Shown here one piece after another: positions 8,227 to 58,867 of a stretch of 64,000 nucleotides of DNA. Position 1 is the first letter of the stretch; each line of letters starts with the position of its first letter. Under the pieces are notes generated by a model. The model was not told the origin of the DNA and ran no database searches. It saw only the letters and a list, made by a program, of their open reading frames with translations. Source of the DNA: Vicinamibacterales bacterium (GTDB lineage: Bacteria; Acidobacteriota; Vicinamibacteria; Vicinamibacterales; 2-12-FULL-66-21); the NCBI GenBank assembly GCA_035575695.1, contig DATLXP010000053.1, positions 1,846-65,845 of the forward strand. The letters run 5' to 3'. The translations under genes and the position numbers were made by a program.

Positions 8227-9793
8227 TGATCACTCGTCGTGCCGCGTTCCGTCCAGGTGCGCCCATGATTCCGCCGCCGGGGTGTGTGGCGGATCCGCAC
8301 ATGTAGAGGTTCCTGATCGGCGTCCGGTATTGCGCCCACCCGGGCGCGGGGCGCAGGAAGAACAGCTGCTCGAGCGTCAGCTCCCCCTGAAAAATATTAC
8401 CCTCGGTCAACCCGAAGTCGCGCTCGATGTCGAGCGGGGTGAGTACCTGGCGGTGCAGGATGATGTCTTTGATGTTCGGCGCATGTTCCGCGATCGTGTT
8501 GATGACGGTGTCGCCGAACGCATCCCGGTGGTCGTCCCACGTGCCTCCTTCCTTGAGGTGGTACGGCGCGTACTGGACGAAGCAGGACATGACGTGCTTG
8601 CCCGGCGGCGCCACGAAAGGATCGGTCAGGCTCGGGATCACCATGTCGATGTACGGACGCCTGGAGTACCGGCCGTACTTGGCCTCGTCATAGGCGCGCT
8701 CCATGTACTCGACGCTCGGGGAAATCGAGATCGCCCCGCGCAGGTGCGGGCCCGGCCCGGGCATCGCCGTGAAGTTCGGGAGCGCGTCGAGCGCCAGGTT
8801 CACCTTCCCGGACGATCCGCGGTACTTGTATCGCTTCACATCGCTCACGAACTCGTCGGGGAGGTTGTCTTCCCCGACCATTTTCAGGAACGTCAGGTTC
8901 GGGTCGACGCTCGACGAGACGACGTCCGCCGTCAGGTAGTCGCCGCTGGTCAGCACGACCCCCACGGCCGCGCCATCCTTGATGATGATCTTCGACACGG
9001 CGGTCTCGGAGCGGATCTCCACGCCCGCCTCACGCGCGGCGTCGGCGATGGCGTTCGAGATCGCGCCGGTCCCGCCGCGCGCAAATCCCCACGAGCGAAA
9101 GGCGCCGTCGATCTCTCCCATGTAGTGGTGGAGCAGCACGTAGGCCGTGCCTGGAGAACGCACGCCGAGAAATGTTCCGATGATCCCCGACGCCGACATC
9201 GTCGCCTTCAGCACGTCGGTTTCGAACCACTGGTCCAGGAAGTCGACCGCGCTCATCGTCATGAGCTGGACCTGGTTGTACTTGTCCTGATCGCGGAGCG
9301 CCTGGAACCGCTTGCCCAGAAAGAGCAGGTTCATCAGACCGCGCGGATCGAGAGAGGTCGGATCCGGCGGCGTCATGTTCAGGATGGGCTTGACGAAACG
9401 GCCCATCTCGACCATCGGCTTGCCGTACTCGTCATACGCCTCGGCGTCGAGCTTCGAGTGGCGTGCGATCTCCCGGTGCGTCCTGGCGTGGTCGTTCACG
9501 CGCCAGAGATAGTCGCCGCTCGGCATGGGCGTGAACGTGCCGTCGAGCGGCAGGATCTCGAGCCCGTGGCGCGGAAGCTCCAGCTCCCGGATGATCTCCG
9601 GACGGAGGAGCGACACGACGTACGACGCGACGGAAAACTTGAAGCCCGGGAAGATCTCTTCGGTCACCGCGGCGCCGCCGAGCACGTGCCTGCGCTCGAG
9701 CACGAGGACCTTGCGTCCGGCCCTGGCGAGATAGGCGGCGTGGACCAGCCCGTTGTGACCGCCGCCGATGACGATGACGTCGTAGTGGGGCAT
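8198..9793 (-). CDS. NAD(P)/FAD-dependent oxidoreductase, phytoene desaturase (CrtI/COG1233) family, paralog 2
   Basis: Rossmann start MPHYDVIVIGGGHNGLVHAAYLARAGRKVLVLE at the ATG at 9793. C-terminal GSATHPGGGIMGAPGRNAAR. Collinear similarity to 6160..7737. Confidence 0.85.
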   Translation of the reverse strand: MPHYDVIVIGGGHNGLVHAAYLARAGRKVLVLERRHVLGGAAVTEEIFPGFKFSVASYVVSLLRPEIIRELELPRHGLEILPLDGTFTPMPSGDYLWRVNDHARTHREIARHSKLDAEAYDEYGKPMVEMGRFVKPILNMTPPDPTSLDPRGLMNLLFLGKRFQALRDQDKYNQVQLMTMSAVDFLDQWFETDVLKATMSASGIIGTFLGVRSPGTAYVLLHHYMGEIDGAFRSWGFARGGTGAISNAIADAAREAGVEIRSETAVSKIIIKDGAAVGVVLTSGDYLTADVVSSSVDPNLTFLKMVGEDNLPDEFVSDVKRYKYRGSSGKVNLALDALPNFTAMPGPGPHLRGAISISPSVEYMERAYDEAKYGRYSRRPYIDMVIPSLTDPFVAPPGKHVMSCFVQYAPYHLKEGGTWDDHRDAFGDTVINTIAEHAPNIKDIILHRQVLTPLDIERDFGLTEGNIFQGELTLEQLFFLRPAPGWAQYRTPIRNLYMCGSATHPGGGIMGAPGRNAARRVIKETKTGGRR

Positions 9794-9965: not shown

Positions 9966-11162
9966 ATGCCGATCGGGACCGCCGTTCACGAGCGCACGTT
10001 TGCCCTCTGCGAAAGCCTCAATTACCGCGAGTGGTCGGGCTATTACGCGGTCAGCGCCTACGAGGGGCACCACGAGCACGAATACAACGCCATCCGCAAT
10101 GCGTCGGCCGTTATCGACGTCTCGCCGCTGTACAAGTATCTCGTCACCGGGCGTGACGCGGCTCGATTCATCGACCGGCTGATCACCCGCGATGTCGTGA
10201 AAATGGCCGTCGGCCAGGTGTTCTACACGCCATGGTGCGACGAGCACGGAAAGGTGATCGACGACGGGACGGTGTCGCGCCTCGAAGAGCAGACGTTCCG
10301 ATGGACGGCGGCTGACCCAAGCCTCCGCTGGTTCTCCCAGAACGCGGCGGGCATGGACGTCCATGTCGAGGATGTCTCCGAGGAGGTCGCGGCGCTCGCG
10401 CTGCAGGGACCGACGAGTGCGCGCCTGCTCCGCTCGGTCGCGGGCGTCGACATCGACGGGCTGAAATATTTCCGCGTGACGCGCGGCACCATTGGTGGCG
10501 TCAGCGTGGAGATCTCGCGCACGGGTTACACGGGGGATCTCGGATACGAGATCTGGATGCCGGCACAGCACGCGCTTCGCGTCTGGGACGCACTGATGGA
10601 CGGCGGCAAGCCGTTCGACATCAAGCCCGTCGGCATGCTGGCCCTCGATGTCGCGCGCATCGAAGCGGGGCTGCTGTTGATCGACGTCGATTTCTTCAGC
10701 AGCAAGAAGGCGATGATCCCCTCCCAGATGTACTCACCGTACGAGATGAATCTGGGACGACTGGTGAGCCTGACCAAGGGTCGGTTCATCGGGCAGCAGG
10801 CGCTCCGTGACGAACACCGGCGCGGGCACGAGAGGCAGATTGTCGGGCTGGAGGTCCAGTGGACCGACGTCGAGGCGATCTACGAGAAGCTCGGCCTCCC
10901 ACCATCGGTCGGCGCGACTGCGTCACGCATTGCGGTGCCGGTCTATCGCAACGGTCGCCAGGTAGGGCGCGCGACGTCCACCACCTGGTCGCCCGTACTC
11001 AAGAAGATGATCGCGCTGGCGACCGTGGACCGTCCCTACTACGCGAACGGAACGAAACTGGAGATGGAAGTCACGGTTGAAGCCGTGCGTCACAAGGTCG
11101 GCGCGACGGTGACGAACACGCCGTTCTTCGACCCGAAGCGAAAAACAGGAATGGTCGGGTAA
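9966..11162 (+). CDS. aminomethyltransferase (glycine-cleavage T / GcvT-like) family protein
   Basis: 398 aa. YKYLVTGRDAARFIDRLITRDV, folate-binding GcvT fold blocks, GYTGDLGYEIW. Confidence 0.85.
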   Translation: MPIGTAVHERTFALCESLNYREWSGYYAVSAYEGHHEHEYNAIRNASAVIDVSPLYKYLVTGRDAARFIDRLITRDVVKMAVGQVFYTPWCDEHGKVIDDGTVSRLEEQTFRWTAADPSLRWFSQNAAGMDVHVEDVSEEVAALALQGPTSARLLRSVAGVDIDGLKYFRVTRGTIGGVSVEISRTGYTGDLGYEIWMPAQHALRVWDALMDGGKPFDIKPVGMLALDVARIEAGLLLIDVDFFSSKKAMIPSQMYSPYEMNLGRLVSLTKGRFIGQQALRDEHRRGHERQIVGLEVQWTDVEAIYEKLGLPPSVGATASRIAVPVYRNGRQVGRATSTTWSPVLKKMIALATVDRPYYANGTKLEMEVTVEAVRHKVGATVTNTPFFDPKRKTGMVG

Positions 11163-11163
11163 T

Positions 11164-11243
11164 CGGGTTATCGGGTTATCGACTGATCGGCTTATCGACC
11201 TATCGACCTATCGACTTATCGGCTTATCGAGGTGTCGACTTAA
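11164..11243. repeat. array of ten 8-bp units CGNNNNAT (TATCG type), left arm around four-helix-bundle gene 2
   Basis: cgggttat cgggttat cgactgat cggcttat cgacctat cgacctat cgacttat cggcttat cgaggtgt cgacttaa. Confidence 0.85.
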
Positions 11244-11773: not shown

Positions 11774-11821
11774 CGATAGGTCGATAGGTCGATAAGCCGG
11801 TAGGTCGATAAGCCGATTAGC
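11774..11821. repeat. array of six 8-bp units CGATNNNN, right (inverted) arm around four-helix-bundle gene 2
   Basis: cgataggt cgataggt cgataagc cggtaggt cgataagc cgattagc. Bases 11774-11798 are the exact reverse complement of 11189-11213. Confidence 0.85.
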
Positions 11822-12941
11822 CCTCGTGCACCCCCCTGATCATCTGATCGAACGCGTAGAGCAGGTCTTCCCGATTCGAGTACGGCCCCGGCGTATACGC
11901 GCGAGAGCTGATGCCGGCCTGCGAGAGCTCGCAGACGTGCCAGTCCTGCCGATTCGTCAGATCCCAGAACTCCACGGCATCTTTCGGGTCGAAGCCAGGC
12001 TTCGCGATTTCATCCGGGTGGAAGTGCCACTCGCAGATGTTGATCGTCCGGTCAGGACCCTGCGGCCACAGCGTGTGGACCAGCATGTAGTCCGGGTGCA
12101 GGCTGAGGAGCATGTTGGGGAAGATCGAGTAGTAGTACACCCGCCGCACGTCCTCTGACGAGAGGCCCGGCAGTGGCGCCCGGTCGCACGTCCCGTCCCA
12201 CGTCAAGGTGTCGACCCCCGGGCGCAGGTCCATCCGGCCGCCCATGTACGTCGGCTGCAGTGCCTCGTTCTCTCCACTCAGGTAATGCGACAGCGTGTTG
12301 AGCGCGGGGTGAAGGTTCGGACAGTGCAGGCACTCGTTGTAGTTCTGCACGATCAGCTTCCAGTTCGCCTTGACGTCGTAGACGATGCGGTGTGCCAGGC
12401 GGAGCTCCTGCATGCGCCAGAAGCCGAACTTGTCCGGCAGGCTCGCGAGCTGCTCGCGGAGCGGGCGGGGCGCCGGGGACAGGTTGATGAAGAGGTGACC
12501 GTCCCAGGCGTCTGCATGGACGGCGTGCAGCGGATAGTCTGCCTTGCGGAAGTGCGGCACCTCCTCCATGTGCGGCGCGCCGATCAACGAGCCGTCGAGG
12601 TTGTAGGTCCACGCGTGGTACGGGCACTGGATGCTTCCGCCGAACGTCCCCTCAGGCTCGGTGCAGAGCTTCGTTCCACGGTGGCGGCACACGTTGAAGA
12701 ACGCGTTCACCCTGCCCGCGCCGCTGGTCGTGATGATGATGCTTTCGCCGAGGATCTCGCGCACGATGTACTGCCCGGGTCTCTCGATCTGCTCGACGCG
12801 TCCGACGCAGACCCACATGCGCCCGTAGAGCGACTCCATCTCGCGCCTGAAGTACGTGGGGTCGATATAAAACGGCGCGGGAAGCGTTCTCGCGCCGTGC
12901 GGCATCACGTCTCGCGGCTTGACCACCACGCCGGTTTCCAT
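11817..12941 (-). CDS. Rieske [2Fe-2S] aromatic-ring-hydroxylating-type oxygenase alpha subunit
   Basis: 374 aa. Rieske motif CRHRGTKLC...CPYHAWTY, then a mononuclear-iron catalytic domain (NYNECLHCPNLHP). Confidence 0.85.
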   Translation of the reverse strand: METGVVVKPRDVMPHGARTLPAPFYIDPTYFRREMESLYGRMWVCVGRVEQIERPGQYIVREILGESIIITTSGAGRVNAFFNVCRHRGTKLCTEPEGTFGGSIQCPYHAWTYNLDGSLIGAPHMEEVPHFRKADYPLHAVHADAWDGHLFINLSPAPRPLREQLASLPDKFGFWRMQELRLAHRIVYDVKANWKLIVQNYNECLHCPNLHPALNTLSHYLSGENEALQPTYMGGRMDLRPGVDTLTWDGTCDRAPLPGLSSEDVRRVYYYSIFPNMLLSLHPDYMLVHTLWPQGPDRTINICEWHFHPDEIAKPGFDPKDAVEFWDLTNRQDWHVCELSQAGISSRAYTPGPYSNREDLLYAFDQMIRGVHEG

Positions 12942-23780: not shown

Positions 23781-23786
23781 GAGGAT

Positions 23787-23937
23787 CGGCTTATCGACTT
23801 TTCGGCTTATCGACTGATCGACTGATCGACTGATTGGCTGATCGGCTCATCGGCTGATTGACTGATCGGGAAACGATAGATCGATGGGTCGATAAGTCGA
23901 TAAATCGATAAGCCGATAAGCCGATAAATCGATTCTC
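23787..23937. repeat. empty inverted double array: ten CGNNNNAT units, a 7-nt centre, eight CGATNNNN units
   Basis: Strict 8-bp phase across 23787-23866 and 23874-23937. It fills the gap between the convergent DUF1634 and GAF genes. Confidence 0.85.
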
Positions 23938-51496: not shown

Positions 51497-51727
51497 CTAC
51501 GCGGTCGCGAGCAGGCGGCTGTAGATCGTCGCCGGCGCCAGGCACTCGACGCGCGACTCGAGGCTCGTCATCGAATCGTCATCGATGATGATGCGGTCGA
51601 ATGCGCCGAGCATCACCTCGCAGCTGTAGCGGCGCGCCCCCCGCCCCGTGCGTTGCTCGAAGAACCGCAGCCCGTACTGCTGGCCATCCACTTCGATCTG
51701 CGCCGTTTTCACAAGCTTCAGAAACAT
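51497..51727 (-). CDS. hypothetical 76-aa protein at the 3' end of the kinase operon
   Basis: The ATG at 51727 is preceded by AAGGAG. MFLKLVKTAQIEVDGQQYGLRFFEQRTG... No recognisable domain. Confidence 0.4.
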   Translation of the reverse strand: MFLKLVKTAQIEVDGQQYGLRFFEQRTGRGARRYSCEVMLGAFDRIIIDDDSMTSLESRVECLAPATIYSRLLATA

Positions 51728-51776
51728 CGGTACTCCTTTTCGATCCTGCGTGCCGCGCTCGATCCTGCCATCCTCG

Positions 51777-53519
51777 TCATCCTGCGATCTGCACCAGCGC
51801 CGCGGCGTGGGCGCGTGGAAAATCGAGCACGAACGTCGTGCCCTTGCCGACCTCGCTCGCGACGCTGATGCGTCCGCCGAGTTGTTCCACAATTTTTTTC
51901 GAGATGGCGAGACCGAGGCCGAGGCCGCGCCGTTTGGTCGTCACGAAGTCGTCGAAGATGGCGGCGAGGCGGTCCTCCGGAATGCCGCACCCCGTGTCGT
52001 AGATCCGGAACTGCACCCTGTCTGCCGTGGCCTCGGTGGCCACGACCACGAGCCCTCCTGGCGCGGTTGCCTGGATGGCATTCAGGATCAGGTTCCGGTG
52101 CACGCGGCCGAGCGCAAAGAGATCCCCTTCGATGAACGCAGGCTCTCGGGTCAACTCCGCCCGCAGGGTGAGGCCCGCCGTTTCGGCCAGGGGGGTCATG
52201 GTCTCCACGGCCTCCGCCAGCGTCGCATTGGCGTCGATCGAGAAGTGTTCGAGCGGCATCGGACGTGCGATGTTGCGCAGGTCGTCGAGTACGCGCTTCA
52301 CGGTCGCCAGCTCGCGCTCGACGGTCTGGCGAAACGTCGCGCGGTACTCGGCATCGTCGAAGATCCGCTGGATCAGCTTGCAACTGTTCCCGATGGTCTG
52401 GATCGGGTGCGACAGGTCGTGCACCAGGCCGGCGGCGATGCGACCGAACATCGCCTGACGCTCCTGCTTGCGGATTTCCTCCTGCAGTTCCACTAGCCGG
52501 TCGGCCATGGTGTTGAAGGCGTCGCCCAGCTGTCGGATTTCATCCTTGCCACGCGGGTGGACCCGCGCGTCCATGTCGCCGGCCGCCAGCGCCCGCGTCA
52601 CGCGCGTTAGCGCGACGATGCGGCGGATGAAGGAGCGTCCCCAGAGCCATCCGGCGCCCACGGTGGCGAGCAGGGCCAAGCCGATCGCCACGACCAGCTG
52701 GCGCTCCAGCGCGAGGGCCACGCCGAGCGCCTCTTTGCGGGGGTGTTCGACGATGACCGTCCAGTCGGGGACGGTGATGCGCGCGGCAACCGCGAGCATG
52801 GCGCCGGCGGGCCCCTCGATCTCACCTGCGGACGTGCGTGACCCGTCAGATCGAAGCCGGCTCGCCAGTTTCTGCTCCGGCGTCTGCGTGGCCCCGGACG
52901 CGATCAGGCGCTTTTGATCCGCGCGTCCGTGCGCGACGATCCTGCCGGTCTCGTCGAGGAGGACCGCAAATCCCGTGTCGCCGACGCGGATCCTGTCGAC
53001 CGCACGCCACAGTTCCTCGAGCGAGATCTCCGCAACGATCCATCCCGGCGTGGCGCCCGAAATCTGGAGCGCCATGGTGGTGGTGGGTAATCCATCATCG
53101 TCGAGGCGCGGTTGCGCGATGTACAACCCGCCGGTTCCACCCGTTCGTGGGGACGGGACGGCGAGCCTGGGCGACGTGGCCCGGCTGGTGGCGAGCACCT
53201 GGCCACTCCGATCGAACAGGGTGATTTCCAGAAACTCCTTGTAGTCCAGCACGTGATTTCGAAGGGTCCGTTCCTGCTGCCAGGCAGCCAGCTGCGTTCC
53301 CTGCAGTTGAGAGGCGATCGACCCGAGGACCCGCTGGTTGTTCTGGAAATAGAGATGGATGCGGTCGGCGATCTCGGTCGCGACCGCCGCGTTCCCGGCT
53401 CCCACCGACTGCGTCGTGCCGCTCCTCAGTGATCGGACCGACACCACTCCATAGATGAGCAGCGGCGCGACAGCGGCCGTGGCGATCAGCACCACGAAGC
53501 GCCCGGTGATACCCCTCAC
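51777..53519 (-). CDS. sensor histidine kinase (periplasmic Cache-like domain, HAMP, HisKA, HATPase_c)
   Basis: 580 aa. Two TM segments flank a ~260-aa sensor domain. HAMP (ALAAGDMDARV), H-box GLVHDLSHPI, N/G boxes NLILNAIQA, YDTGCGIP, GLGLGLAISKKIV. The GTG start overlaps the SBP stop (GTGA). Confidence 0.85.
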   Translation of the reverse strand: MRGITGRFVVLIATAAVAPLLIYGVVSVRSLRSGTTQSVGAGNAAVATEIADRIHLYFQNNQRVLGSIASQLQGTQLAAWQQERTLRNHVLDYKEFLEITLFDRSGQVLATSRATSPRLAVPSPRTGGTGGLYIAQPRLDDDGLPTTTMALQISGATPGWIVAEISLEELWRAVDRIRVGDTGFAVLLDETGRIVAHGRADQKRLIASGATQTPEQKLASRLRSDGSRTSAGEIEGPAGAMLAVAARITVPDWTVIVEHPRKEALGVALALERQLVVAIGLALLATVGAGWLWGRSFIRRIVALTRVTRALAAGDMDARVHPRGKDEIRQLGDAFNTMADRLVELQEEIRKQERQAMFGRIAAGLVHDLSHPIQTIGNSCKLIQRIFDDAEYRATFRQTVERELATVKRVLDDLRNIARPMPLEHFSIDANATLAEAVETMTPLAETAGLTLRAELTREPAFIEGDLFALGRVHRNLILNAIQATAPGGLVVVATEATADRVQFRIYDTGCGIPEDRLAAIFDDFVTTKRRGLGLGLAISKKIVEQLGGRISVASEVGKGTTFVLDFPRAHAAALVQIAG

Positions 53520-55018
53520 TGCGGCTTACCCGCCACGGGCCGCCACTGCCAGATGCTGGCAAGTGGGTCCTGGCTGTTGAACTCGCCCACTGAGAACTGG
53601 CGGTCGATCGCCCGCGTGACCTGCGCCCAGGCGATGAAGATCGCGGGCGCATCCTCGTAGAACCTCTGCACGAGCGCCGCAATGGCCGACCGCGTGCGCC
53701 CATCGTCGGTGCTGCTCCGGAGGTCCTCGAGGAGTCGATCGACCCCAGGATAACCACGCACCAAACTCTCGGGTCGCTTCGTGTGCCAGAACCGGTACGT
53801 GTAATCCAGAGAGCGGCCAGCGTTGACTCGAATGAGCGCCGTGTCGAAATTGCCGGACTGGACACGCTGCGCGATCGTGGTCATGTCGGCGGGCGTCAGC
53901 ACCAGGTTGATGCCGACATCGAACAACTGCCGCTGCAGGATGAGCGCGATCCGTTCGTATTGCGCATCCTCGCTCCAGAAGAGGCACCTCAGCGTGAGGC
54001 GTGTTCGCGTACCGTCGCGGGCAGCGCTGCCCGGAAGGCGCAAGCCGGCAAGGTCGAGCCGGCGTCTCGCCCCCACCGGGTCGTACGCGTGACGCATGCC
54101 TGCCGAGGGATAAGCCCAGTGAAAAGGCCAGATCGGATCGTTGGCCACGCGGCCGTGGCCCCTCATCGCCGCATCCAGGATGGCATCTCGATCGACGGCT
54201 TCGTTCAGTGCCCGCCGAACATCACGGCGCGCCAGCGCCGGGTGGTGATGGTTGAAGAGAAGGGGGATGTAGTACGGCTGCAGCGAAGGATACGTCTGCA
54301 CATTGTGGCTGCTGTCAACGAACTCGACAGTTTCGCGGCTCACTTCCTGTACGGCGTCGACTTCGTCGCGCATCAGGCCGGCCCAGGCGCCTCGCTGGGT
54401 GTCGTACGGCACGATCGTGACGCCCGTCACACCGGGCGTACCGCCATGATAACGATCGAACACGACGGTTTGGAAAGCCGGCTCCTTTGCGGTGATCTTG
54501 AACGGCCCGGTGCCGATATCGGGGGCCTCGGGCCGAACGATTTTCAGGACCGTCAACTCCGGCAGCAGGAAGAAGTCGGGCCGTGACAGGGAAACGACGA
54601 TGCTCCGTGGATCGGGAGCCACGACGCCGGTCACATACTCGAAGCCCAGCGAGCTTGTGAGCCGCGAACGCCTGATGATGTCTGCCACCATCTCTGCGGT
54701 GAGCAGTGCTCCGTCGTGGAGCCGTACGTTCGGCTTCAACTGGAGCCGCAAGGTTTCCCCCCCGTCTTCCCACTGCCAACCGGAGACGAGGCCCGCGACC
54801 GCCCGGCCGTCGAGCCCTCGCGACACGAGCGACTCTGAAAACAGCAAGGCGCCCAGATTCGCGACGGCGTTCTCGCGGACGCTCGATCCGAGGCCGATGC
54901 CGATGCGAACCATGGGCGGCGGTGAAGCCGCTCCCGGGCTCGCATGACAGCTCGCCGACGCGAGGAGGCCCATCAGCGCGAGTGCGCACGTGCTCCCCCG
55001 ACAGGAAATTCGCGTCAT
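53516..55018 (-). CDS. family 5 (OppA/DppA/NikA-like) periplasmic solute-binding protein
   Basis: Signal peptide MTRISCRGSTCALALMGLLASASCHA from the ATG at 55018. SBP_bac_5-like blocks (GTGPFKI..., YHGG). No permease or ATPase genes are adjacent. Confidence 0.8.
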   Translation of the reverse strand: MTRISCRGSTCALALMGLLASASCHASPGAASPPPMVRIGIGLGSSVRENAVANLGALLFSESLVSRGLDGRAVAGLVSGWQWEDGGETLRLQLKPNVRLHDGALLTAEMVADIIRRSRLTSSLGFEYVTGVVAPDPRSIVVSLSRPDFFLLPELTVLKIVRPEAPDIGTGPFKITAKEPAFQTVVFDRYHGGTPGVTGVTIVPYDTQRGAWAGLMRDEVDAVQEVSRETVEFVDSSHNVQTYPSLQPYYIPLLFNHHHPALARRDVRRALNEAVDRDAILDAAMRGHGRVANDPIWPFHWAYPSAGMRHAYDPVGARRRLDLAGLRLPGSAARDGTRTRLTLRCLFWSEDAQYERIALILQRQLFDVGINLVLTPADMTTIAQRVQSGNFDTALIRVNAGRSLDYTYRFWHTKRPESLVRGYPGVDRLLEDLRSSTDDGRTRSAIAALVQRFYEDAPAIFIAWAQVTRAIDRQFSVGEFNSQDPLASIWQWRPVAGKPQ

Positions 55019-55027
55019 CGCCACGCA

Positions 55028-55041
55028 GCGGCCCGGGCCGC
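55028..55041 (-). terminator. GC palindrome directly after precursor peptide B (candidate attenuator hairpin)
   Basis: GCGGCCCGGGCCGC is a perfect 14-nt palindrome abutting the TAG of the peptide ORF, 10 nt before the SBP ATG. No U-tract. Confidence 0.25.
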
Positions 55042-55136
55042 TACTTCCTGCTTCCGAGCATGTCTTCGACGACAAAGGGACAGACTGCCGAGCTGCTCTT
55101 CTTCACTTCCGCCTTCTTGATGATCGTGATCTTCAT
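55041..55136 (-). CDS. 31-aa candidate RiPP precursor peptide B (not in the ORF track)
   Basis: Manual translation: MKITIIKKAEVKKSSSAVCPFVVEDMLGSRK. AGGAGA lies 5 nt upstream of the ATG. Gap-free alignment with the peptide at 55221..55316. Sits 2 genes downstream of the rSAM-SPASM gene. Confidence 0.5.
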   Translation of the reverse strand: MKITIIKKAEVKKSSSAVCPFVVEDMLGSRK

Positions 55137-55168
55137 GATTCTCTCCTGAAAGTTGACTGTCGTGCATT

Positions 55169-55224
55169 CCGATCGGCCGATTGGCCGATCGATCGATCGA
55201 TCGATGGACCGATAGATCGATTAC
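55169..55224. repeat. seven 8-bp units of the CGAT type between the two precursor-peptide ORFs
   Basis: ccgatcgg ccgattgg ccgatcga tcgatcga tcgatgga ccgataga tcgattac. It overlaps the stop codon of peptide A. Confidence 0.8.
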
Positions 55225-55316
55225 CTGAGGTGCTCGATCGCCACATCGACCAGCCAGGGCTTCAGCGTGCCGTTCTTCTTGGTCGTGCTCGCTTTCGTCG
55301 TGATCGTCTTGTTCAT
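55221..55316 (-). CDS. 31-aa candidate RiPP precursor peptide A (not in the ORF track)
   Basis: Manual translation: MNKTITTKASTTKKNGTLKPWLVDVAIEHLR. AGGAGA lies 5 nt upstream of the ATG, which is 22 nt downstream of the rSAM-SPASM stop. Confidence 0.5.
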   Translation of the reverse strand: MNKTITTKASTTKKNGTLKPWLVDVAIEHLR

Positions 55317-55338
55317 GCTCTTCTCCTGTGTTGAGGCT

Positions 55339-56796
55339 CTAGTTCGCCAGCGCAGCCGTCAGGCTGGCGGCGGCGTCGCGGGCCATGGATACGACGCCGG
55401 CTTCGAAACTTGTCTTGTGGCAGCTCGGGGCGTTCATGTCGCCGAGCTCCGTGTGTGACGCGACGGTGCAGCCACCGGCGCAGACGGGGATGAAGGCACA
55501 GCCTTCGCACGCCTTCCACGCGGCGAGTCGATCGAACCGCCCGGCTGCCGCCGACCGCAGCGCGTCGGTCGCCCCGCTGATGTCCCCGGTCGACATGGAA
55601 CGATTCCCGGTGAATCCGGGGCACGCGTAGAGATCTCCGTCGGGCCCAATCGTGTGGGAGTGCCTGCGGTGAATCTCGCACGGCCCCATGTGGACCCCAT
55701 CGCTCGTTCGGAATCCGCGCTTCTTCGTTTCGGCACGCAGGAAGGACGTCTGGTCGTCGAGGAAGTGACACGTGTCGCACCCGGCGGCGGCGCCCCCCCC
55801 GGCCGACGTCATGCACGTGCCATTGAGCGGTTTACTGTCGCCGCCGACTGGCGCCAGCCCGATGAACTTCGATCTCCCGGTCGCGGTGGTCGCGGCAGGG
55901 CTGGTCTTGCCCTCACGGATGATGGCCTTGAACGCGATGCTCTTGAGGTGGGGAGCGACGTCCTGCGCCGCGAGAAAGTCGATCAGCGCCGGGTAGGACT
56001 CGACCGACGACTCGTCGAAGTTGCCACCGATGGAGATCGCGCACCGGCCCGCGACTTGGCGCAGGTTGTGGATGATCCGGTCGAACGTGCCCTGCCCGCC
56101 GCGCAACGGCCGCATCCGGTTGTGCGTGTCGCGGTCCCCGTCGAGCGTGATCTTGAAGCCATTGAGGCCGAACGGTTCGAGCCGGTCGACGATGTCGGGG
56201 GTGAGCAGCAGGCCGTTGGTGATGACGTTGATCGACAGGCGCACACCCCGGGCGGCCGAGGCGTGCCAGAGCCGCTCCGCGAGGTAGTACATCACCGGCA
56301 GGTTGAGCAGCGGCTCTCCGCCGAAGAACGTCAGCACGAACTTCTCAGGTGAAATGGCATCCATCCGTGCCTCGGCCCACTCACCGACCCGCGCCGCCGT
56401 CGCCATCGTCATTTTCGCAGCGGTTTTGTTGTACTCCCCGTGATCACCCTGGAAGCAGTAGTCGCATGCGAAGTTGCACTGCAGCGTCGTCAGGACCGTG
56501 ATCCGCAGTTCGTCGTCTCCCTCGCGAACGTCGCGGAAGAAATTCTCGAGGCGCTGCCACTCGTCACGCCGGTCGCGGACCAGGAAGCCGTGTTCGGCGA
56601 GGGTTCGGATCGAGTCCTCCTCGTCCGGGCGGCGCGCGCCGTCGCCGGCGTCGACGTGACCGTCGATGCGATCAAGGAGCGACACCACGTCGTTCGAGAC
56701 GATCAGCTGGGCGTCGGTGAGGGTGTTCATGAGGAACACCTCGCCACCCGACGACTCGGCGAGAGGCACACGTACGTTGAACTGCGAAGACTGCAT
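55339..56796 (-). CDS. radical SAM / SPASM domain peptide-modifying enzyme with N-terminal PqqD/RRE-like region
   Basis: The likely start is the ATG at 56796 (AAGGAG upstream); the ORF track extends to 56922. CNFACDYCFQ (CX3CX2C) motif. C-terminal SPASM Cys pattern CPGF...CEGCAFIPVCAGGC. The N-terminal ~90 aa (FLMNTLTDAQLIVSNDVVSLLDRI...LAEHGFLV) look like a leader-recognition element. Confidence 0.85.
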   Translation of the reverse strand: MQSSQFNVRVPLAESSGGEVFLMNTLTDAQLIVSNDVVSLLDRIDGHVDAGDGARRPDEEDSIRTLAEHGFLVRDRRDEWQRLENFFRDVREGDDELRITVLTTLQCNFACDYCFQGDHGEYNKTAAKMTMATAARVGEWAEARMDAISPEKFVLTFFGGEPLLNLPVMYYLAERLWHASAARGVRLSINVITNGLLLTPDIVDRLEPFGLNGFKITLDGDRDTHNRMRPLRGGQGTFDRIIHNLRQVAGRCAISIGGNFDESSVESYPALIDFLAAQDVAPHLKSIAFKAIIREGKTSPAATTATGRSKFIGLAPVGGDSKPLNGTCMTSAGGGAAAGCDTCHFLDDQTSFLRAETKKRGFRTSDGVHMGPCEIHRRHSHTIGPDGDLYACPGFTGNRSMSTGDISGATDALRSAAAGRFDRLAAWKACEGCAFIPVCAGGCTVASHTELGDMNAPSCHKTSFEAGVVSMARDAAASLTAALAN

Positions 56797-56869
56797 CCGG
56801 GCTCCTTCGGAACTCGAAACCGCGTTGTGTTGTGAGGTGAGCCGCTCCAAGCGGGCATGCCTGAAACGG

Positions 56870-56885
56870 TGCAACGGATGTTCCG
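56870..56885 (-). promoter_or_regulatory. candidate sigma-54 promoter for the rSAM/peptide/SBP/kinase operon
   Basis: The minus strand reads CGGAACATCCGTTGCA. GG-N10-GC spacing is correct and the -12 element TTGCA is perfect; the -24 element matches 4 of 6. It lies about 75 nt upstream of the ATG at 56796. Confidence 0.4.
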
Positions 56886-57026
56886 GTGGTGAAGGAACTG
56901 TCGCTGAAGTCCCAACCGTCACTCTTCAGGGTAAATGCGCCTTCGTTTGCGCGAGTCTGACGTGACTCTTTCGTCAACGTTCGAAACACACAACCGCCGC
57001 ATGTCGAGGGTGTTTACGGATCAGCA

Positions 57027-57066
57027 GGCCAACTAATTGGCCGGACAGGCCAACTGGTTGGCCTGT
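57027..57066. promoter_or_regulatory. two palindromes sharing GGCCAA/TTGGCC half-sites: candidate enhancer (UAS) for the adjacent sigma-54 activator
   Basis: ACAGGCCAAC-TG-GTTGGCCTGT (57045..57066, a perfect 10-2-10 palindrome that overlaps the regulator's stop codon) and GGCCAA-CTAA-TTGGCC (57027..57042). They lie about 145-195 nt upstream of the candidate -24/-12 element. Confidence 0.35.
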
Positions 57067-58451
57067 CACCCGCGGAGCTTGCGGGCGATGTCGCGCAGAT
57101 CGAGGCGCGCCATCTTGTGCTTGAGCGTGCTGAGGGGGAGCCCGAGGTACCTCGCGGTCGCGGTCACGTTCCAGTCACCTTTTTCGAGCGCGCGCAGAAT
57201 GAAGTTCCGCTCGAACGTGTCGCAGGCCTCCTGGAACAGCGTGTCTCCGCCGGACGGCTGTGCCGAATCCAGTTTGGCGAAGTGATACTCGAGGGGGAGG
57301 TCCTCGTCGGTGATCCACTCCTTGTCGGTCACGGCGACGAGTCGCTCGATCAGGTTTTCGAGCTCGCGGATATTGCCAGGCCACCAGTACGTCGACAGGA
57401 TCTTCAGCGCGGACCCCGAGATCCCGCGAACGGGCTTCCGGAACTTGGCGCGGTAGCGGGCGAGGAATAGCCGTGCGAGCTCGGGGAGGTCGTCGAGGCG
57501 GTCACGGAGCGGAGGCATCCGGATCGGGATGACGTTGATCCGGTAGTAGAGGTCCTCGCGGAACCGGCCGTCCTTCACTGCCTTCTCGAGATCCACGTTG
57601 GTCGCGACGATGAGCCGGAAGTCGGTGCGGATCGGTTTCGACCCGCCGACGCGCTCGATCTCCCCTTCCTGGATGGCGCGCAGGAACTTTGCCTGGAGGT
57701 CGAACCGCAGGTCCCCGATTTCGTCGAGGAACAGCGTGCCGCCGGCCGCCAGCTCGAACTTCCCGAGCTGTTGCTTGTGGGCTCCCGTGAACGAGCCTCG
57801 CTCGTGGCCGAACAGCGTGCTCTCGACGAGCTCGTGCGGAATCGCGGACAGGTTCACGGCGATGAACGCCGCCTCACCCTTTCCGGACTCGCGATGCAGC
57901 AGCCGCGCGAGGAGTTCCTTGCCGGTCCCGCTCTCCCCGAGGATCAACACCGTGGCCGGGAGTTTCGCCACCTTCTGGACCAGGTCGACGATGTCGCGGA
58001 TCTGGCGGCTGGGTCCGATGAGGAACTCGCGCTCTCCGTGCTCGGCCACCTGAGCGCTGAGGGTGATGACCTGCCTGTTGAGGTCCTGCCGCTCGAACGC
58101 ATTGCGGACGAGCGAGCGGAGTTCGTCGTAGTCGAACTCCTTGGTGATGTAGTGATACGCGCCATGCTTCATCGCCTGCACGGCCGTCTCGACCTCATTG
58201 ATCGCCGAGATCATGATGCACTCGACCAGGCCGTAGTTCTCCCGCACGATCCGCAGCACGTCGAACCCGCTGATCCCGGGCAGGCGCACGTCGAGCAGGA
58301 TCAGGTCGACATCCGCTTCGCGCAGCAGGACGAGCGCTGCCTCGCCGCTCGAGACAGTGAGCACGCGATAGTCCCGCTTGAGGATCGCCGACAGCGTGTC
58401 GCGCATCCCCTGGTCGTCGTCGCAGATAAGAATGGTCTTGCCGTGAGCCAT
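57066..58451 (-). CDS. sigma-54-dependent Fis family response regulator (NtrC-type enhancer-binding protein)
   Basis: 461 aa. REC domain (LILLDVRLPG), AAA+ Walker A GESGTGKE, GAFTGA-type loop ERGSFTGA, C-terminal Fis HTH WNVTATARYLGLPLSTLKHKM. Confidence 0.9.
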   Translation of the reverse strand: MAHGKTILICDDDQGMRDTLSAILKRDYRVLTVSSGEAALVLLREADVDLILLDVRLPGISGFDVLRIVRENYGLVECIMISAINEVETAVQAMKHGAYHYITKEFDYDELRSLVRNAFERQDLNRQVITLSAQVAEHGEREFLIGPSRQIRDIVDLVQKVAKLPATVLILGESGTGKELLARLLHRESGKGEAAFIAVNLSAIPHELVESTLFGHERGSFTGAHKQQLGKFELAAGGTLFLDEIGDLRFDLQAKFLRAIQEGEIERVGGSKPIRTDFRLIVATNVDLEKAVKDGRFREDLYYRINVIPIRMPPLRDRLDDLPELARLFLARYRAKFRKPVRGISGSALKILSTYWWPGNIRELENLIERLVAVTDKEWITDEDLPLEYHFAKLDSAQPSGGDTLFQEACDTFERNFILRALEKGDWNVTATARYLGLPLSTLKHKMARLDLRDIARKLRG

Positions 58452-58462
58452 TTTGGGCGGAT

Positions 58463-58607
58463 TCTATCCGATTGCCCGACAAGTCGACCAATCGACCTAT
58501 CGGCCTATCGGCCAATCGACCGATCGACCGATAAGTCGATAAGCCGATAGATCGATAGATCGATAGATCGATCAACTAATAGACCGATAACCCGATACGG
58601 TGATACC
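58463..58607. repeat. about 18 consecutive 8-bp units switching from TATCG phase to CGATA phase (empty inverted double array)
   Basis: ...accaatcg acctatcg gcctatcg gccaatcg accgatcg accgataa gtcgataa gccgatag atcgatag atcgatag atcgatca... It lies upstream of the divergent sigma-54 regulator and the lpdA operon. Confidence 0.85.
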
Positions 58608-58609
58608 GT

Positions 58610-58867
58610 TTGACGGTTGTGGTTCTGTGGGGATTTGCAACCGTCACGCTCCTCGTCGCGCTGGGTGCCCTGGTGCTCGCACGGCGCGTCTCGCGCAAGC
58701 TCGAGGCGCTCACCCAGTCCTACTGGGAGCTGCGTTACGACTACACGCGTTTGCGCTCCCAGATGACGCGGCTCGACCCTGACGAAGCCGAGGCAGCTCA
58801 GCCGCCCACCGCTCAGTCAACGGTGACGTTCGTTCCGCTTGCATCGATGAAAAAGAAGAATGAGTAA
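58610..58867 (+). CDS. hypothetical small single-pass membrane protein preceding lpdA
   Basis: 85 aa. TTG start (uncertain). One TM segment then a charged helix. GC3-rich codons. The stop overlaps the lpdA start by 8 nt. Confidence 0.4.
   Translation: MTVVVLWGFATVTLLVALGALVLARRVSRKLEALTQSYWELRYDYTRLRSQMTRLDPDEAEAAQPPTAQSTVTFVPLASMKKKNE

Follow-up and report, generated by a model that had tools for sequence, protein, structure and literature searches.

Autoinducing circuits built on modified peptides (RiPPs) occur in Gram-positive bacteria, as exemplified by nisin (NisK/NisR), subtilin, and the agr AIP. In these systems a kinase binds the modified peptide directly, outside the cytoplasm, and the peptide's own biosynthetic genes are switched on through regulators of the OmpR or LytTR type and sigma-70 promoters. 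An exporter and a protease are part of the clusters. Methanobactin operons are under the control of an ECF sigma factor. They pair a small RiPP precursor with the TonB-dependent receptor MbnT and the oligopeptide-type periplasmic binding protein MbnE, which serves uptake rather than a kinase. PQQ and mycofactocin are produced by radical SAM (rSAM)/SPASM enzymes acting on the C-terminal residues of peptides of about 25 aa. In CBP-ChiS of Vibrio, LuxP-LuxQ, and AioX-AioS-AioR, a periplasmic solute-binding protein (SBP) without a transporter role of its own controls a kinase; the ligands are chitin oligosaccharides, AI-2, and arsenite, respectively, and AioR is an activator of sigma-54 transcription. 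CBP belongs to the SBP_bac_5 family, the sensor domain of ChiS is dCache-like, and AioX stimulates the AioSR two-component system (PMC8050422). Lastly, CteB (SCIFF) and PapB (freyrasin, a ranthipeptide) carry an rSAM core with a SPASM auxiliary-cluster domain and modify short precursors in a leader-dependent manner, where PapB joins Cys to the carbon beside an Asp or Glu carboxylate (PMC9413430).

The locus described here lies on the minus strand of a 64-kb stretch of DNA (hereafter, the window) from a soil acidobacterium. Judged from its sequence, it is a signalling-plus-biosynthesis module kept across at least three bacterial phyla, and no published description of it was found in the literature searched. 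All genes listed in the initial annotation were confirmed at the coordinates given there: an NtrC-type activator, an rSAM/SPASM enzyme, two 31-aa ORFs, an SBP, a kinase, and a 76-aa ORF. The features are as follows, in transcription order.

57066..58451, minus strand: NtrC-type sigma-54 enhancer-binding response regulator (EBP); Pfam and NCBIfam matches
57048..57063, unstranded: candidate upstream activator site, palindrome 1, GGCCAACCAGTTGGCC; GGCCAA-N4-TTGGCC
57027..57042, unstranded: candidate upstream activator site, palindrome 2, GGCCAATTAGTTGGCC; 21 bp from palindrome 1
56870..56885, minus strand: sigma-54 (-24/-12) promoter, GG-N10-GC, CGGAACATCCGTTGCA; consensus match and conservation
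55339..56796, minus strand: radical SAM/SPASM peptide maturase, relative of the 'geopeptide' maturase TIGR04280; profile matches and homologues
55221..55316, minus strand: type A peptide, MNKTITTKASTTKKNGTLKPWLVDVAIEHLR; no Cys, conserved C-terminus
55169..55221, unstranded: CGAT / 8-bp-period tandem repeat between the peptide genes; read from sequence
55041..55136, minus strand: type B precursor peptide, MKITIIKKAEVKKSSSAVCPFVVEDMLGSRK; MKIxIIKK leader, one invariant Cys
55028..55041, minus strand: GC-rich palindrome, GCGGCCCGGGCCGC; read from sequence
53516..55018, minus strand: orphan periplasmic family-5 SBP with a signal peptide; SBP_bac_5 (PF00496), 160 bits
51777..53519, minus strand: dCache_1-HAMP-HisKA-HATPase sensor histidine kinase (HK); domain profiles
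51497..51727, minus strand: conserved 76-aa protein of unknown function, kept downstream of the kinase in other phyla too

The explanation that accounts best for the whole locus, to which we assign a probability of roughly 45%, runs from sensing by the SBP to autoinducing feedback by the modified peptide. Such a circuit would resemble those of nisin, subtilin, and agr in that a modified peptide is sensed outside the cytoplasm and controls its own biosynthetic genes, but it would operate across two membranes, through an SBP intermediary and a sigma-54 activator, with no exporter or protease and with a TonB-dependent receptor in sister clades. No peptide maturase with precursor genes is known to be coupled to CBP-ChiS, LuxP-LuxQ, or AioX-AioS-AioR. 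The module shares with methanobactin operons an RiPP precursor, a TonB-dependent receptor, and an oligopeptide-type binding protein, but it apparently lacks MbnB and MbnC homologues and uses a different enzyme class.

Distribution of the module among bacteria

The rSAM family was found in 303 GTDB species representatives. The best 80 were all Vicinamibacterales or unclassified Acidobacteriota MAGs, and the locus was syntenic in every one of them, as far as each contig reaches. The housekeeping flanks (lpd, HU, and queF) were syntenic in Vicinamibacterales as well, so gene order inside this group alone proves nothing. Distant rSAM relatives (34-53% identity) in Nitrospirota, Syntrophobacterales, and others retained the same core in other surroundings, in the order sigma-54 activator (then usually a TonB-dependent receptor), rSAM, peptide, family-5 SBP, and dCache kinase, with a peptide of 24-26 aa of the form MK(I/L)x(I/V)(I/V)KKG...C-x-aromatic. 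The core had unrelated flanks in L081, L083 (Syntrophobacterales), L084 (Nitrospirae), L085, L086, L088, L090, L168, L169, and L170. The neighborhood could simply reflect common descent of the gene order, with the sensor system functionally unconnected to the enzyme and peptides. This is extremely improbable, as it is contradicted both by the recurrence of the core among wholly different flanks and by the conservation, in precisely the gap that separates the EBP and enzyme genes, of a sigma-54 promoter and activator sites.

The linkage of rSAM homologues to short ORFs, SBP, HK, and EBP genes, on which the initial annotation had staked its hypothesis, was thus observed in other phyla, and it disappeared around more distant enzymes. 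Among 47 control loci, where the rSAM identity was at most about 30%, the SBP, the EBP, and a plausible leader-type peptide were absent, and a weak, distant kinase match was found in L166 alone. A TonB-dependent receptor was linked to the module in eight distant loci, while none was found in the window or adjoining the module in any Vicinamibacterales locus examined. Neither an exporter nor a leader peptidase was encoded in the window, as previously noted for the cluster, or in any of about 100 related loci, which counts against the explanation preferred here.

Probable regulatory wiring

The EBP contains the Response_reg, Sigma54_activat, AAA_lid_14, and HTH_8 domains, with a GSFTGA loop in its AAA+ domain, and shares 85-92% identity with its counterparts in most Vicinamibacterales loci. 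The 269-nt gap between the EBP and rSAM genes holds one sigma-54 site and two perfect palindromes, and both elements proposed for it earlier were borne out by comparison. The 5' end of the promoter CGGAACATCCGTTGCA is 89 nt upstream of the rSAM ATG, and it is the sole match to YGGAAY-N5-TTGCW in the window. An equivalent site was present in 68 of 77 related loci, as opposed to 2% of control windows, and a sigma-54 promoter likewise precedes distant rSAM homologues. The two GGCCAA-N4-TTGGCC sites are the only perfect ones in the window, where 0.1 would be expected by chance. At least one such site was found in 62 of 69 related loci and in none of 1,310 control windows, and pairs with a spacing of 20-22 bp occurred in 38 loci. 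In low-GC relatives, a strong terminator closes the rSAM-peptide unit and the SBP-HK pair has its own sigma-70-like promoter, leaving the enzyme and peptide genes as the sole adjacent sigma-54 target. In the high-GC host of the window, sigma-54 transcription probably continues past the peptide genes into those for the SBP and the kinase.

The SBP is distantly related to NikA, AppA, and DppA. Its gene immediately precedes that of the kinase in every locus in which the two could be placed, other phyla included. The overlap of the SBP TGA stop with the HK GTG start (GTGA) and the Cache/HAMP architecture of the kinase (dCache_1, HAMP, HATPase_c) were as originally described. The 76-aa protein was modeled by AF2 as a four-stranded sheet with a C-terminal helix (pLDDT 93), and the model had no significant match in the PDB.

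These features suggest a relay in three steps. The orphan SBP would bind a small ligand and modulate the adjoining dCache/HAMP kinase, for which CBP-ChiS and LuxP-LuxQ are precedents; the kinase would phosphorylate the NtrC-type activator; and the activator, bound at the two palindromes, would switch on the sigma-54 promoter of the rSAM and peptide genes. The sites of the third step are present in the DNA, and we infer their use. As regulatory wiring, the three steps are highly probable.

Precursor peptides and predicted chemistry

Both 31-aa ORFs are preceded by a GGAG Shine-Dalgarno sequence. That they are real genes was corroborated by the recovery of two families in about 70 Vicinamibacterales loci, with synonymous changes over invariant residues, i.e., purifying selection at the amino-acid level. 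The type A peptide occurred in 42 loci, also with synonymous codon variation at its invariant residues. The type B peptide was found in 86 copies among 67 loci, with one to four copies per locus, and all 86 copies had the Cys and an Asp or Glu at Cys+5 (C-x4-D/E). Its leader was kept in other phyla too: in 12 distant loci the same leader precedes a C-x-aromatic core, with the peptide ending 5-6 residues past the Cys. None of the module peptides matched an NCBIfam model. It is very likely that the short ORFs are ribosomal precursor peptides of the enzyme. They had been described as paralogous twin substrates, but they form two distinct conserved families that have only a P-(W/F)-x-V-(D/E) core in common, and the twin reading proved wrong since type A has no Cys and no co-variation with the SBP. 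With no Cys, type A falls outside the proposed scheme.

The tandem repeat between the peptide genes is probably not specific to the module, as repeats of the same type occur in other intergenic gaps of the window. The type B stop codon (TAG, 55043-55041) shares its final base with the palindrome GCGGCCCGGGCCGC, which continues downstream. The palindrome could form a hairpin with no T-run, and no canonical terminator was found at this position, where low-GC relatives have clear ones.

The rSAM enzyme matched PF04055 at 56 bits and the SPASM profile TIGR04085 at 47.5 bits (cutoff 27), and its cluster motif is CNFACDYC. Two observations favor a start at the ATG at 56796: homologues begin with MQSS.FNV, and the promoter falls within the longer ORF. 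The RRE-like N-terminus suggested earlier is a weak candidate: a low-confidence model gave a beta-beta-beta-alpha-alpha-alpha topology, and no PqqD match was obtained. The closest solved relatives were CteB and TigE, where CteB was the best PDB sequence match (E=5e-16) and among the best structural matches. The best-scoring named family was TIGR04280, a hypothetical equivalog whose 'geopeptide' was the subject of no paper in the literature searched. One close homologue carries this name at NCBI, but every module enzyme scored below the 400-bit cutoff (253 bits for the window enzyme, 250-345 for distant relatives). The enzyme was also far below the cutoffs for PapB (122 versus 340) and SCIFF (91 versus 425). 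Because it falls under the curated NCBIfam cutoff of every named maturase family, its chemistry is extrapolated.

By analogy with CteB and PapB, the enzyme would bind the type B MKIxIIKK leader and modify the C-terminal core at the invariant Cys, most likely forming an intramolecular thioether ring over C-x-aromatic-x-x-(Asp/Glu). PapB forms Cys-to-Asp/Glu thioethers with 0-6 residues in between (PMC9413430), a tolerance that accommodates the invariant C-x4-D/E of type B. However, the module peptides are only 24-33 aa long with one Cys, compared with six in the CteB and PapB systems, and the distant peptides have no Asp or Glu after the Cys, such that the ring acceptor cannot be identical everywhere. 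On this analogy, we give a Cys thioether even odds.

A product kept inside the cell, for instance a PQQ- or mycofactocin-like cofactor whose supply the sensor system merely regulates, would suit both the enzyme class with its ~25-aa substrates and the absence of an exporter. It is very improbable, given that the module encodes none of the further enzymes of cofactor pathways (peptidase, oxidase, glycosyltransferase), that the core varies highly between species, unlike cofactor precursors, and that the one to four tandem copies and the linked TonB receptor point to a product that leaves the cell.

The ligand of the binding protein

In the final and weakest step of the preferred explanation, the cyclized peptide would exit the cell, return to the periplasm, and bind the SBP, closing a positive feedback; in sister clades, the linked TonB-dependent receptor would offer the return route. 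Divergence of the peptide core correlated with that of the SBP when rSAM, EBP, and both kinase halves were controlled for (r=0.33, p=0.001), although this is only suggestive, since common ancestry inflates Mantel-type tests and no other module protein evolves as fast as the SBP (30-49% identity where the EBP retains 85-92%). The core did not correlate significantly with the rSAM when the SBP was controlled for (r=0.05). This closer relationship to the SBP than to the enzyme makes self-sensing, i.e., recognition of the modified peptide by the SBP, plausible, and the recurrence of the receptor in sister clades and an oligopeptide-sized predicted product are consistent with it. That the ligand is the product of the enzyme is a tentative proposal, slightly short of an even chance.

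The same wiring could instead respond to an unrelated external cue, such as foreign oligopeptides, a nutrient, or a chelate of nickel or another metal, with the modified peptide as output only (e.g., an antimicrobial or stress RiPP) and no autoinduction. Family-5 SBPs bind many ligands, including peptides, nickel, opines, and chitin oligosaccharides (PMC8050422). Additionally, the peptide has no exporter or peptidase of its own, the separate promoter of the sensor genes in low-GC relatives fits any inducible output, and rapid evolution of periplasmic domains often has other causes. We nevertheless regard this as rather unlikely: every recovered locus with the SBP-HK pair, whatever its phylum, also carried the rSAM-peptide pair; divergence of the peptide core follows that of the SBP in particular, and not that of the maturase; and the contrast in identity between SBP and EBP is easier to reconcile with a ligand that varies than with a constant nutrient.

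Alternatively, the peptide may be a secreted, metallophore-like binder of metal or other cargo that is re-imported through a TonB-dependent receptor, with its loaded form sensed in the periplasm by the SBP-kinase pair, as in siderophore-responsive two-component systems. The receptor in eight distant loci, the best named relatives of the SBP, which are nickel or metallophore binders, the Cys, Asp/Glu, and Trp of the core, and the RiPP, MbnT, and family-5-like MbnE of methanobactin operons all point in this direction. This reading is nonetheless improbable, as the single Cys per peptide is probably consumed by the thioether, no metal-regulator boxes or metal-homeostasis genes lie nearby, the receptor is missing from Vicinamibacterales loci, and the similarity to NikA is weak (83 bits versus a cutoff of 600).

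If self-sensing holds true, the module may give Gram-negative bacteria a loop for signalling by peptides, with a periplasmic SBP of the peptide type and its kinase controlling, through a sigma-54 switch, an enzyme and the tiny peptides that it probably cyclizes.

Composition of the module and classification of its enzyme

The module genes listed in the initial annotation were all recovered on the minus strand, at the coordinates it had assigned, together with the candidate control sites of the gap between the activator and enzyme genes.

Features of the module in the window
57066-58451, minus strand: sigma-54 activator, with a receiver (PF00072), the PF00158 domain (225 bits), an AAA lid, and a Fis-type HTH (PF02954)
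57048-57063 and 57027-57042: two perfect palindromes, GGCCAA-N4-TTGGCC, directly past the activator stop and 21 bp apart
56885..56870, minus strand: candidate -24/-12 sigma-54 promoter CGGAACATCCGTTGCA, in the 269-nt activator-enzyme gap
55339-56796, minus strand: radical SAM/SPASM enzyme, with the CNFACDYC motif, PF04055, and TIGR04085
55221-55316, minus strand: type A peptide, the first 31-aa ORF, with a GGAG ribosome-binding site
55041-55136, minus strand: type B peptide, the second 31-aa ORF, with a GGAG ribosome-binding site
53516-55018, minus strand: family-5 solute-binding protein (SBP_bac_5, 160 bits)
51777-53519, minus strand: kinase with dCache_1, HAMP, and HATPase_c, whose GTG start overlaps the TGA stop of the binding protein
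51497-51727, minus strand: protein of about 76 aa, downstream of the kinase and conserved across phyla

The enzyme carries a radical SAM domain (PF04055, 56.2 bits against a Pfam cutoff of 29.5) and a C-terminal SPASM domain, which was recognized by TIGR04085 (47.5 bits against a cutoff of 27) and fell below threshold for the Pfam model PF13186 (16.7 against 21.5). Its CX3CX2C cluster motif, CNFACDYC, was invariant in an alignment with 20 homologues, where further conserved cysteines occurred at positions 373, 392, 430, 433, 439, 443, and 459. No PqqD Pfam match was found in the enzyme. An AlphaFold model of modest quality (pLDDT 62) aligned structurally over its full length with TigE and CteB, and residues 7-92 were predicted with low confidence (pLDDT 47-73 in the AF2 model) as three strands followed by three helices, an arrangement of the RRE type. 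By sequence, the nearest solved structure was the SCIFF thioether synthase CteB (5wgg, E=5e-16).

Among named families, the best match was the 'geopeptide radical SAM maturase' TIGR04280, where a score of 253 bits against a cutoff of 400 marks the enzyme as a relative rather than a member. The next-ranked families were CefB, TIGR04463, FlmE/OhkG, and PapB, with every score below its cutoff. Membership was rejected for the PapB family NF047865 (122.5 bits against 340) and for the SCIFF system TIGR03974 (91 bits against 425), the peptides described below having one Cys versus six in the SCIFF precursor. The enzyme represents a new clade beside TIGR04280, below the curated thresholds of every named maturase family.

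In a scan of one genome per GTDB species, the enzyme family was found in 303 species, and the best 80 of the 303 either belonged to Vicinamibacterales or were unclassified Acidobacteriota MAGs, which places the window in this lineage. Among 1.8 billion cluster representatives searched, a gap set the family apart: full-length members were at least 55% identical, while the next relatives were at most about 40% identical and scored 250-345 bits on TIGR04280. Four related enzyme proteins at 39-45% identity (P0148, P0166, P0168, and P0258) were considered as a sister family, but alignment identified them as frameshifted translations of the same family; they carry Arg/Ala-rich out-of-frame runs, which mimic a sister family in similarity tables.

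Where contigs permitted, the best loci shared the order lpd, small membrane protein, activator, enzyme, gap, binding protein, kinase, 76-aa ORF, HU, and queF. The locus was likewise present in a Luteitalea MAG (L045). In the window, an 85-aa ORF with a hydrophobic N-terminus (58610-58867, plus strand) lies between the activator gene and lpd, divergent from the activator, and was kept at 45-75% identity in most Vicinamibacterales loci. Since the housekeeping flanks are also syntenic in this order, gene order within Vicinamibacterales is no proof of function.

Linkage in distant relatives and the predicted precursor peptides

The genomic context of distant relatives was looked up, and more loci were added from metagenomes. 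About half of the loci from the metagenome scan, which used generic patterns, encoded unrelated radical SAM enzymes and served as negative controls. The distant loci, which included a Syntrophobacterales genome (locus L083), a Nitrospirae MAG (L084), and a 'Deltaproteobacteria' genome (L085), had flanking genes entirely unlike those of Vicinamibacterales. An SBP_bac_5 gene was located 3' of the enzyme gene in ten of them (L081, L083, L084, L085, L086, L088, L090, L168, L169, and L170), followed by a dCache kinase wherever the contig allowed; in L168, the gene past the binding protein is cut by the contig end and carries no Pfam annotation. A sigma-54 receiver-activator was found upstream in eight distant loci, and a TonB-dependent receptor in eight, usually directly past the activator and in L083 past the kinase. 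Several distant loci also encoded a 66-77-aa ORF past the kinase. In 47 loci whose radical SAM enzyme was at most about 30% identical, there was no binding protein, no activator, and no plausible leader-type peptide, with a single weak and distant kinase match in one of them (L166). Hence, the survey that the initial annotation had called for found the combination of short ORF, binding protein, kinase, and activator beside homologues outside Vicinamibacterales, and its disappearance at about 30% identity or less. Descent alone would account for a shared gene order within Vicinamibacterales, where the flanks are kept as well, but this reading is contradicted by the conservation across phyla and was ruled out.

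Several distant loci showed additional genes. For example, L088 carries the gene of a SAM-dependent methyltransferase (8704-9621) between its peptide and binding-protein genes, and two tandem family-5 binding-protein genes occur in L086 (9551-12766). Extra receiver and GGDEF/EAL proteins were encoded past the kinase in L084 (12115-15030), L086 (14803-17356), and L170 (12071-15269), which may point to a further output of this sensor, through c-di-GMP, in Nitrospirota-type loci.

Homologues of the 76-aa protein were located in L081 (12152-12382), L083 (12344-12577), and L085 (13304-13519). The protein was predicted to fold as a four-stranded sheet with a C-terminal helix (pLDDT 93), for which neither a PDB profile search nor Foldseek returned anything significant, and no significant family match was obtained. 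The label 'HemP' on one JGI homologue was rejected, as PF10636 matched only one of 21 members, at a non-significant E=0.14.

In the Vicinamibacterales loci, the gap between the enzyme and binding-protein genes always held small ORFs with a Shine-Dalgarno sequence, which fell into two families. Type B occurred in 86 copies across 67 loci, with one to four copies per locus, and followed the pattern MKI(Q/T/K)(I/V)(I/V)KK, 8-10 variable residues, and C-(P/A)-(W/F/Y)-x-(V/I/L)-(D/E)-x-P-P; all 86 copies had a Cys and an Asp/Glu five residues on (C-x4-D/E). A conserved short precursor was likewise adjacent to the enzyme gene in 12 distant loci, where a 24-26-aa peptide lies directly 3' of it. These distant peptides share the Vicinamibacterales type of leader, MK(I/L)x(I/V)(I/V)K(K/R)G, followed by a single Cys and an aromatic-rich tail that ends five or six residues on (for example, MKLQIVKKGERKIKSKPSFCGWYAR). 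An AGGAGG-type ribosome-binding site was recorded before most of them and was absent in L083. The most widely conserved peptide element was C-x-aromatic.

Type A was found in 42 loci, always as a single copy and always first 3' of the enzyme gene. It has a Lys-rich variable N-terminus and a near-invariant C-terminus, TLRPWLVDVxVxxLR, and it lacks both a Cys and the MKIxIIKK leader. For the invariant residues of both families, the loci use as many as six different codons, indicating selection on the peptides rather than on the DNA. The two 31-aa ORFs, initially described as twin paralogues, are thus real and conserved genes, but they belong to two distinct families, and the copies in the window share only a P-(W/F)-x-V-(D/E) core. 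Because type A has no Cys or leader, and because its C-terminus is nearly invariant between genomes whose binding proteins differ at over half of their positions, it qualifies neither as the same kind of thioether substrate nor as a co-evolving ligand. It may act as a pseudo-substrate or a regulator, or may undergo a different chemistry. In sequence, type A resembles a Cys-less derivative of the type B core whose partner is a different and conserved one. An NCBIfam scan of the window and distant peptides at E up to 10 matched no family, and the predicted precursors, of 24-33 aa, constitute an unannotated peptide family.

Regulatory DNA and operon structure

The activator is of the NtrC type by its domains, with a GSFTGA loop (GAFTGA-type) visible in its translation. 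The 269-nt gap downstream of its gene had been proposed to contain a GG-N10-GC promoter and palindromes, and both were found and proved conserved. The promoter pattern derived from related loci matched the 64-kb window only once, at CGGAACATCCGTTGCA; in 68 of 77 related loci, the 200 nt preceding the enzyme gene contained an equivalent site, compared with 2% of random windows from the same loci, and the median distance from promoter to ATG was about 100 nt. The two GGCCAA-N4-TTGGCC palindromes are the only such sites in the window (0.1 expected). At least one palindrome with no more than one mismatch occupied the corresponding gap of 62 of 69 loci but occurred in none of 1310 control windows, and a pair spaced at 20-22 bp was found in 38 loci. 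A -24/-12 promoter with activator palindromes upstream is the classic layout of a target of sigma-54 enhancer-binding proteins, and the gap contains candidate sites of exactly this arrangement. The layout also places the start of the enzyme at 56796 rather than at an upstream GTG. Transcription is predicted to begin near 56860.

The organization of transcription was clearest in lower-GC distant loci. Several of these showed a sigma-54 promoter upstream of the enzyme gene, a strong intrinsic terminator 3' of the peptide gene, and then a TTGACT-17-TAT(G/T)CT promoter before the binding-protein and kinase genes; a scanning tool confirmed this layout in L084 and L170. There, the adjacent sigma-54 unit would comprise only the enzyme and peptide genes, with the sensor genes transcribed on their own. 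In the window, only 22 nt separate the type B stop from the start of the binding-protein gene and no canonical terminator was found between them, so that read-through into the sensor genes, and hence auto-amplification of the sensor, is likely.

A sigma-70 promoter and terminator scan of the window gave nothing convincing, an Rfam scan of the window gave only sub-threshold matches on simple repeats, and the region of the two peptide genes had an ordinary fold (z=-0.85). Tandem arrays with an 8-bp period, with units such as TCGATAAG, CGATAGGT, and GATCGACT, were observed in gaps at 11155-11242, 11774-11822, 23784-23933, 55169-55221, and 58484-58597; one of these arrays separates the two peptide genes, and another precedes the activator gene. 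The arrays appear to belong to a type of repeat that occupies intergenic regions throughout the genome, and their Rfam matches were sub-threshold chance matches only.

The sensor pair and a possible autoinduction circuit

The binding protein was only distantly related to NikA, AppA, and DppA. Its gene was directly upstream of the dCache kinase gene in the window and in every locus where both could be located, and no transporter genes were found between or beside the two; this bears out the initial description of an orphan binding protein, without ABC permease or ATPase, whose gene adjoins that of a kinase. The binding protein was by far the fastest-evolving component, with a mean pairwise p-distance of 0.63, followed by the periplasmic part of the kinase (0.54), the enzyme (0.32), and the activator (0.18). 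Across 40 loci, divergence of the peptide core correlated with that of the binding protein (Mantel r=0.61, p about 0.002), also with the enzyme, the activator, and both kinase halves controlled (r=0.33, p=0.001), and its correlation with the enzyme was not significant when the binding protein was controlled (r=0.05). Shared ancestry inflates Mantel tests, and proteins that evolve fast track one another trivially; the covariation is taken as a lead only.

The sensing and relay steps of a signaling scheme have precedents. SBP_bac_5 proteins control a kinase in CBP-ChiS, where the ChiS sensor is dCache-like, and serve chemoreceptors in DppA-Tap and AibA-TlpB, while AioX stimulates AioSR (table in PMC8050422). 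By analogy, the binding protein would control the kinase, which would activate the NtrC-type regulator and thereby fire the sigma-54 promoter. The nearest characterized enzymes suggest that the single invariant Cys may form a thioether with a residue further downstream. PapB attaches its thioether to the carbon adjacent to the carboxylate of Asp or Glu and tolerates a spacing of 0-6 residues (PMC9413430), and it can use a C-terminal carboxylate provided that the terminal amino acid is of the D- or beta-type (PMC12373016). The Asp/Glu at +5 in the Vicinamibacterales core and the distant cores that end at +5/+6 are suggestive in this respect, but are not evidence of a PapB reaction.

The weakest step of the scheme is that the product would itself be the ligand of the binding protein. 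Several observations favor such self-sensing: the sensor pair was never found without the enzyme-peptide pair; the product, as predicted, would be a small oligopeptide, and oligopeptides are the natural ligands of the SBP_bac_5 family; a TonB-dependent receptor, which molecules that exceed the size limit of porins require, is repeatedly found beside the module; and the binding protein evolves fast, with a divergence that tracks the peptide core. The resulting reading is a quorum-sensing-like circuit native to double-membraned bacteria, in which a radical-SAM-cyclized peptide of 6-15 residues would be released, re-enter the periplasm, and induce its own operon. Re-entry would proceed through the dedicated TonB-dependent receptor where present, followed by capture by the orphan binding protein and signaling through the Cache kinase and the sigma-54 activator to the biosynthetic operon. 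The variable core and the fast-evolving binding protein would then create species-specific 'dialects', and the circuit would extend across Acidobacteriota, Nitrospirota, and Thermodesulfobacteriota. We hold this reading tentatively, at a probability of roughly two in five.

Other observations do not fit autoinduction readily. The initial annotation had seen no exporter or leader peptidase in the cluster, and likewise neither the window nor any of about 100 related loci yielded a dedicated exporter or leader protease of the kind that belongs to nisin or agr. Additionally, a TonB-dependent receptor was found neither in the window nor next to the module in any Vicinamibacterales locus examined. 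A pathway for a cofactor, rather than a signal, is an unlikely alternative, because accessory enzymes were missing and the peptide core is variable.

The regulatory logic is a combination of known elements, namely a binding-protein-assisted kinase, a sigma-54 activator, and, if self-sensing holds, RiPP autoinduction, for which nisin or agr are the models. The module was not described in the literature searched (Acidobacteria radical SAM enzymes and ranthipeptides, SPASM with sigma-54, RiPPs with TonB and binding proteins, and ranthipeptide quorum sensing), where no paper on 'geopeptide' was found either.

Ribosomal peptide signals are textbook knowledge in Gram-positive bacteria, but are rare and poorly understood in Gram-negatives, and peptide autoinduction across two membranes would be unusual. 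Hundreds of species have the module, all from lineages that are abundant in soil and sediment but little cultured (Vicinamibacterales, Nitrospirota, and Syntrophobacterales), and the parts for a test have all been identified: precursor, enzyme, candidate receptor, kinase, activator, DNA sites, and promoter. Should self-sensing fail, an unannotated family of predicted 24-33-aa precursors and a new clade of radical SAM enzymes, predicted to be maturases, under a defined sigma-54 switch would still stand. If self-sensing is true, the combination of TonB-dependent receptor, binding protein, and kinase would constitute a new architecture for cell-cell or self signaling across two membranes.
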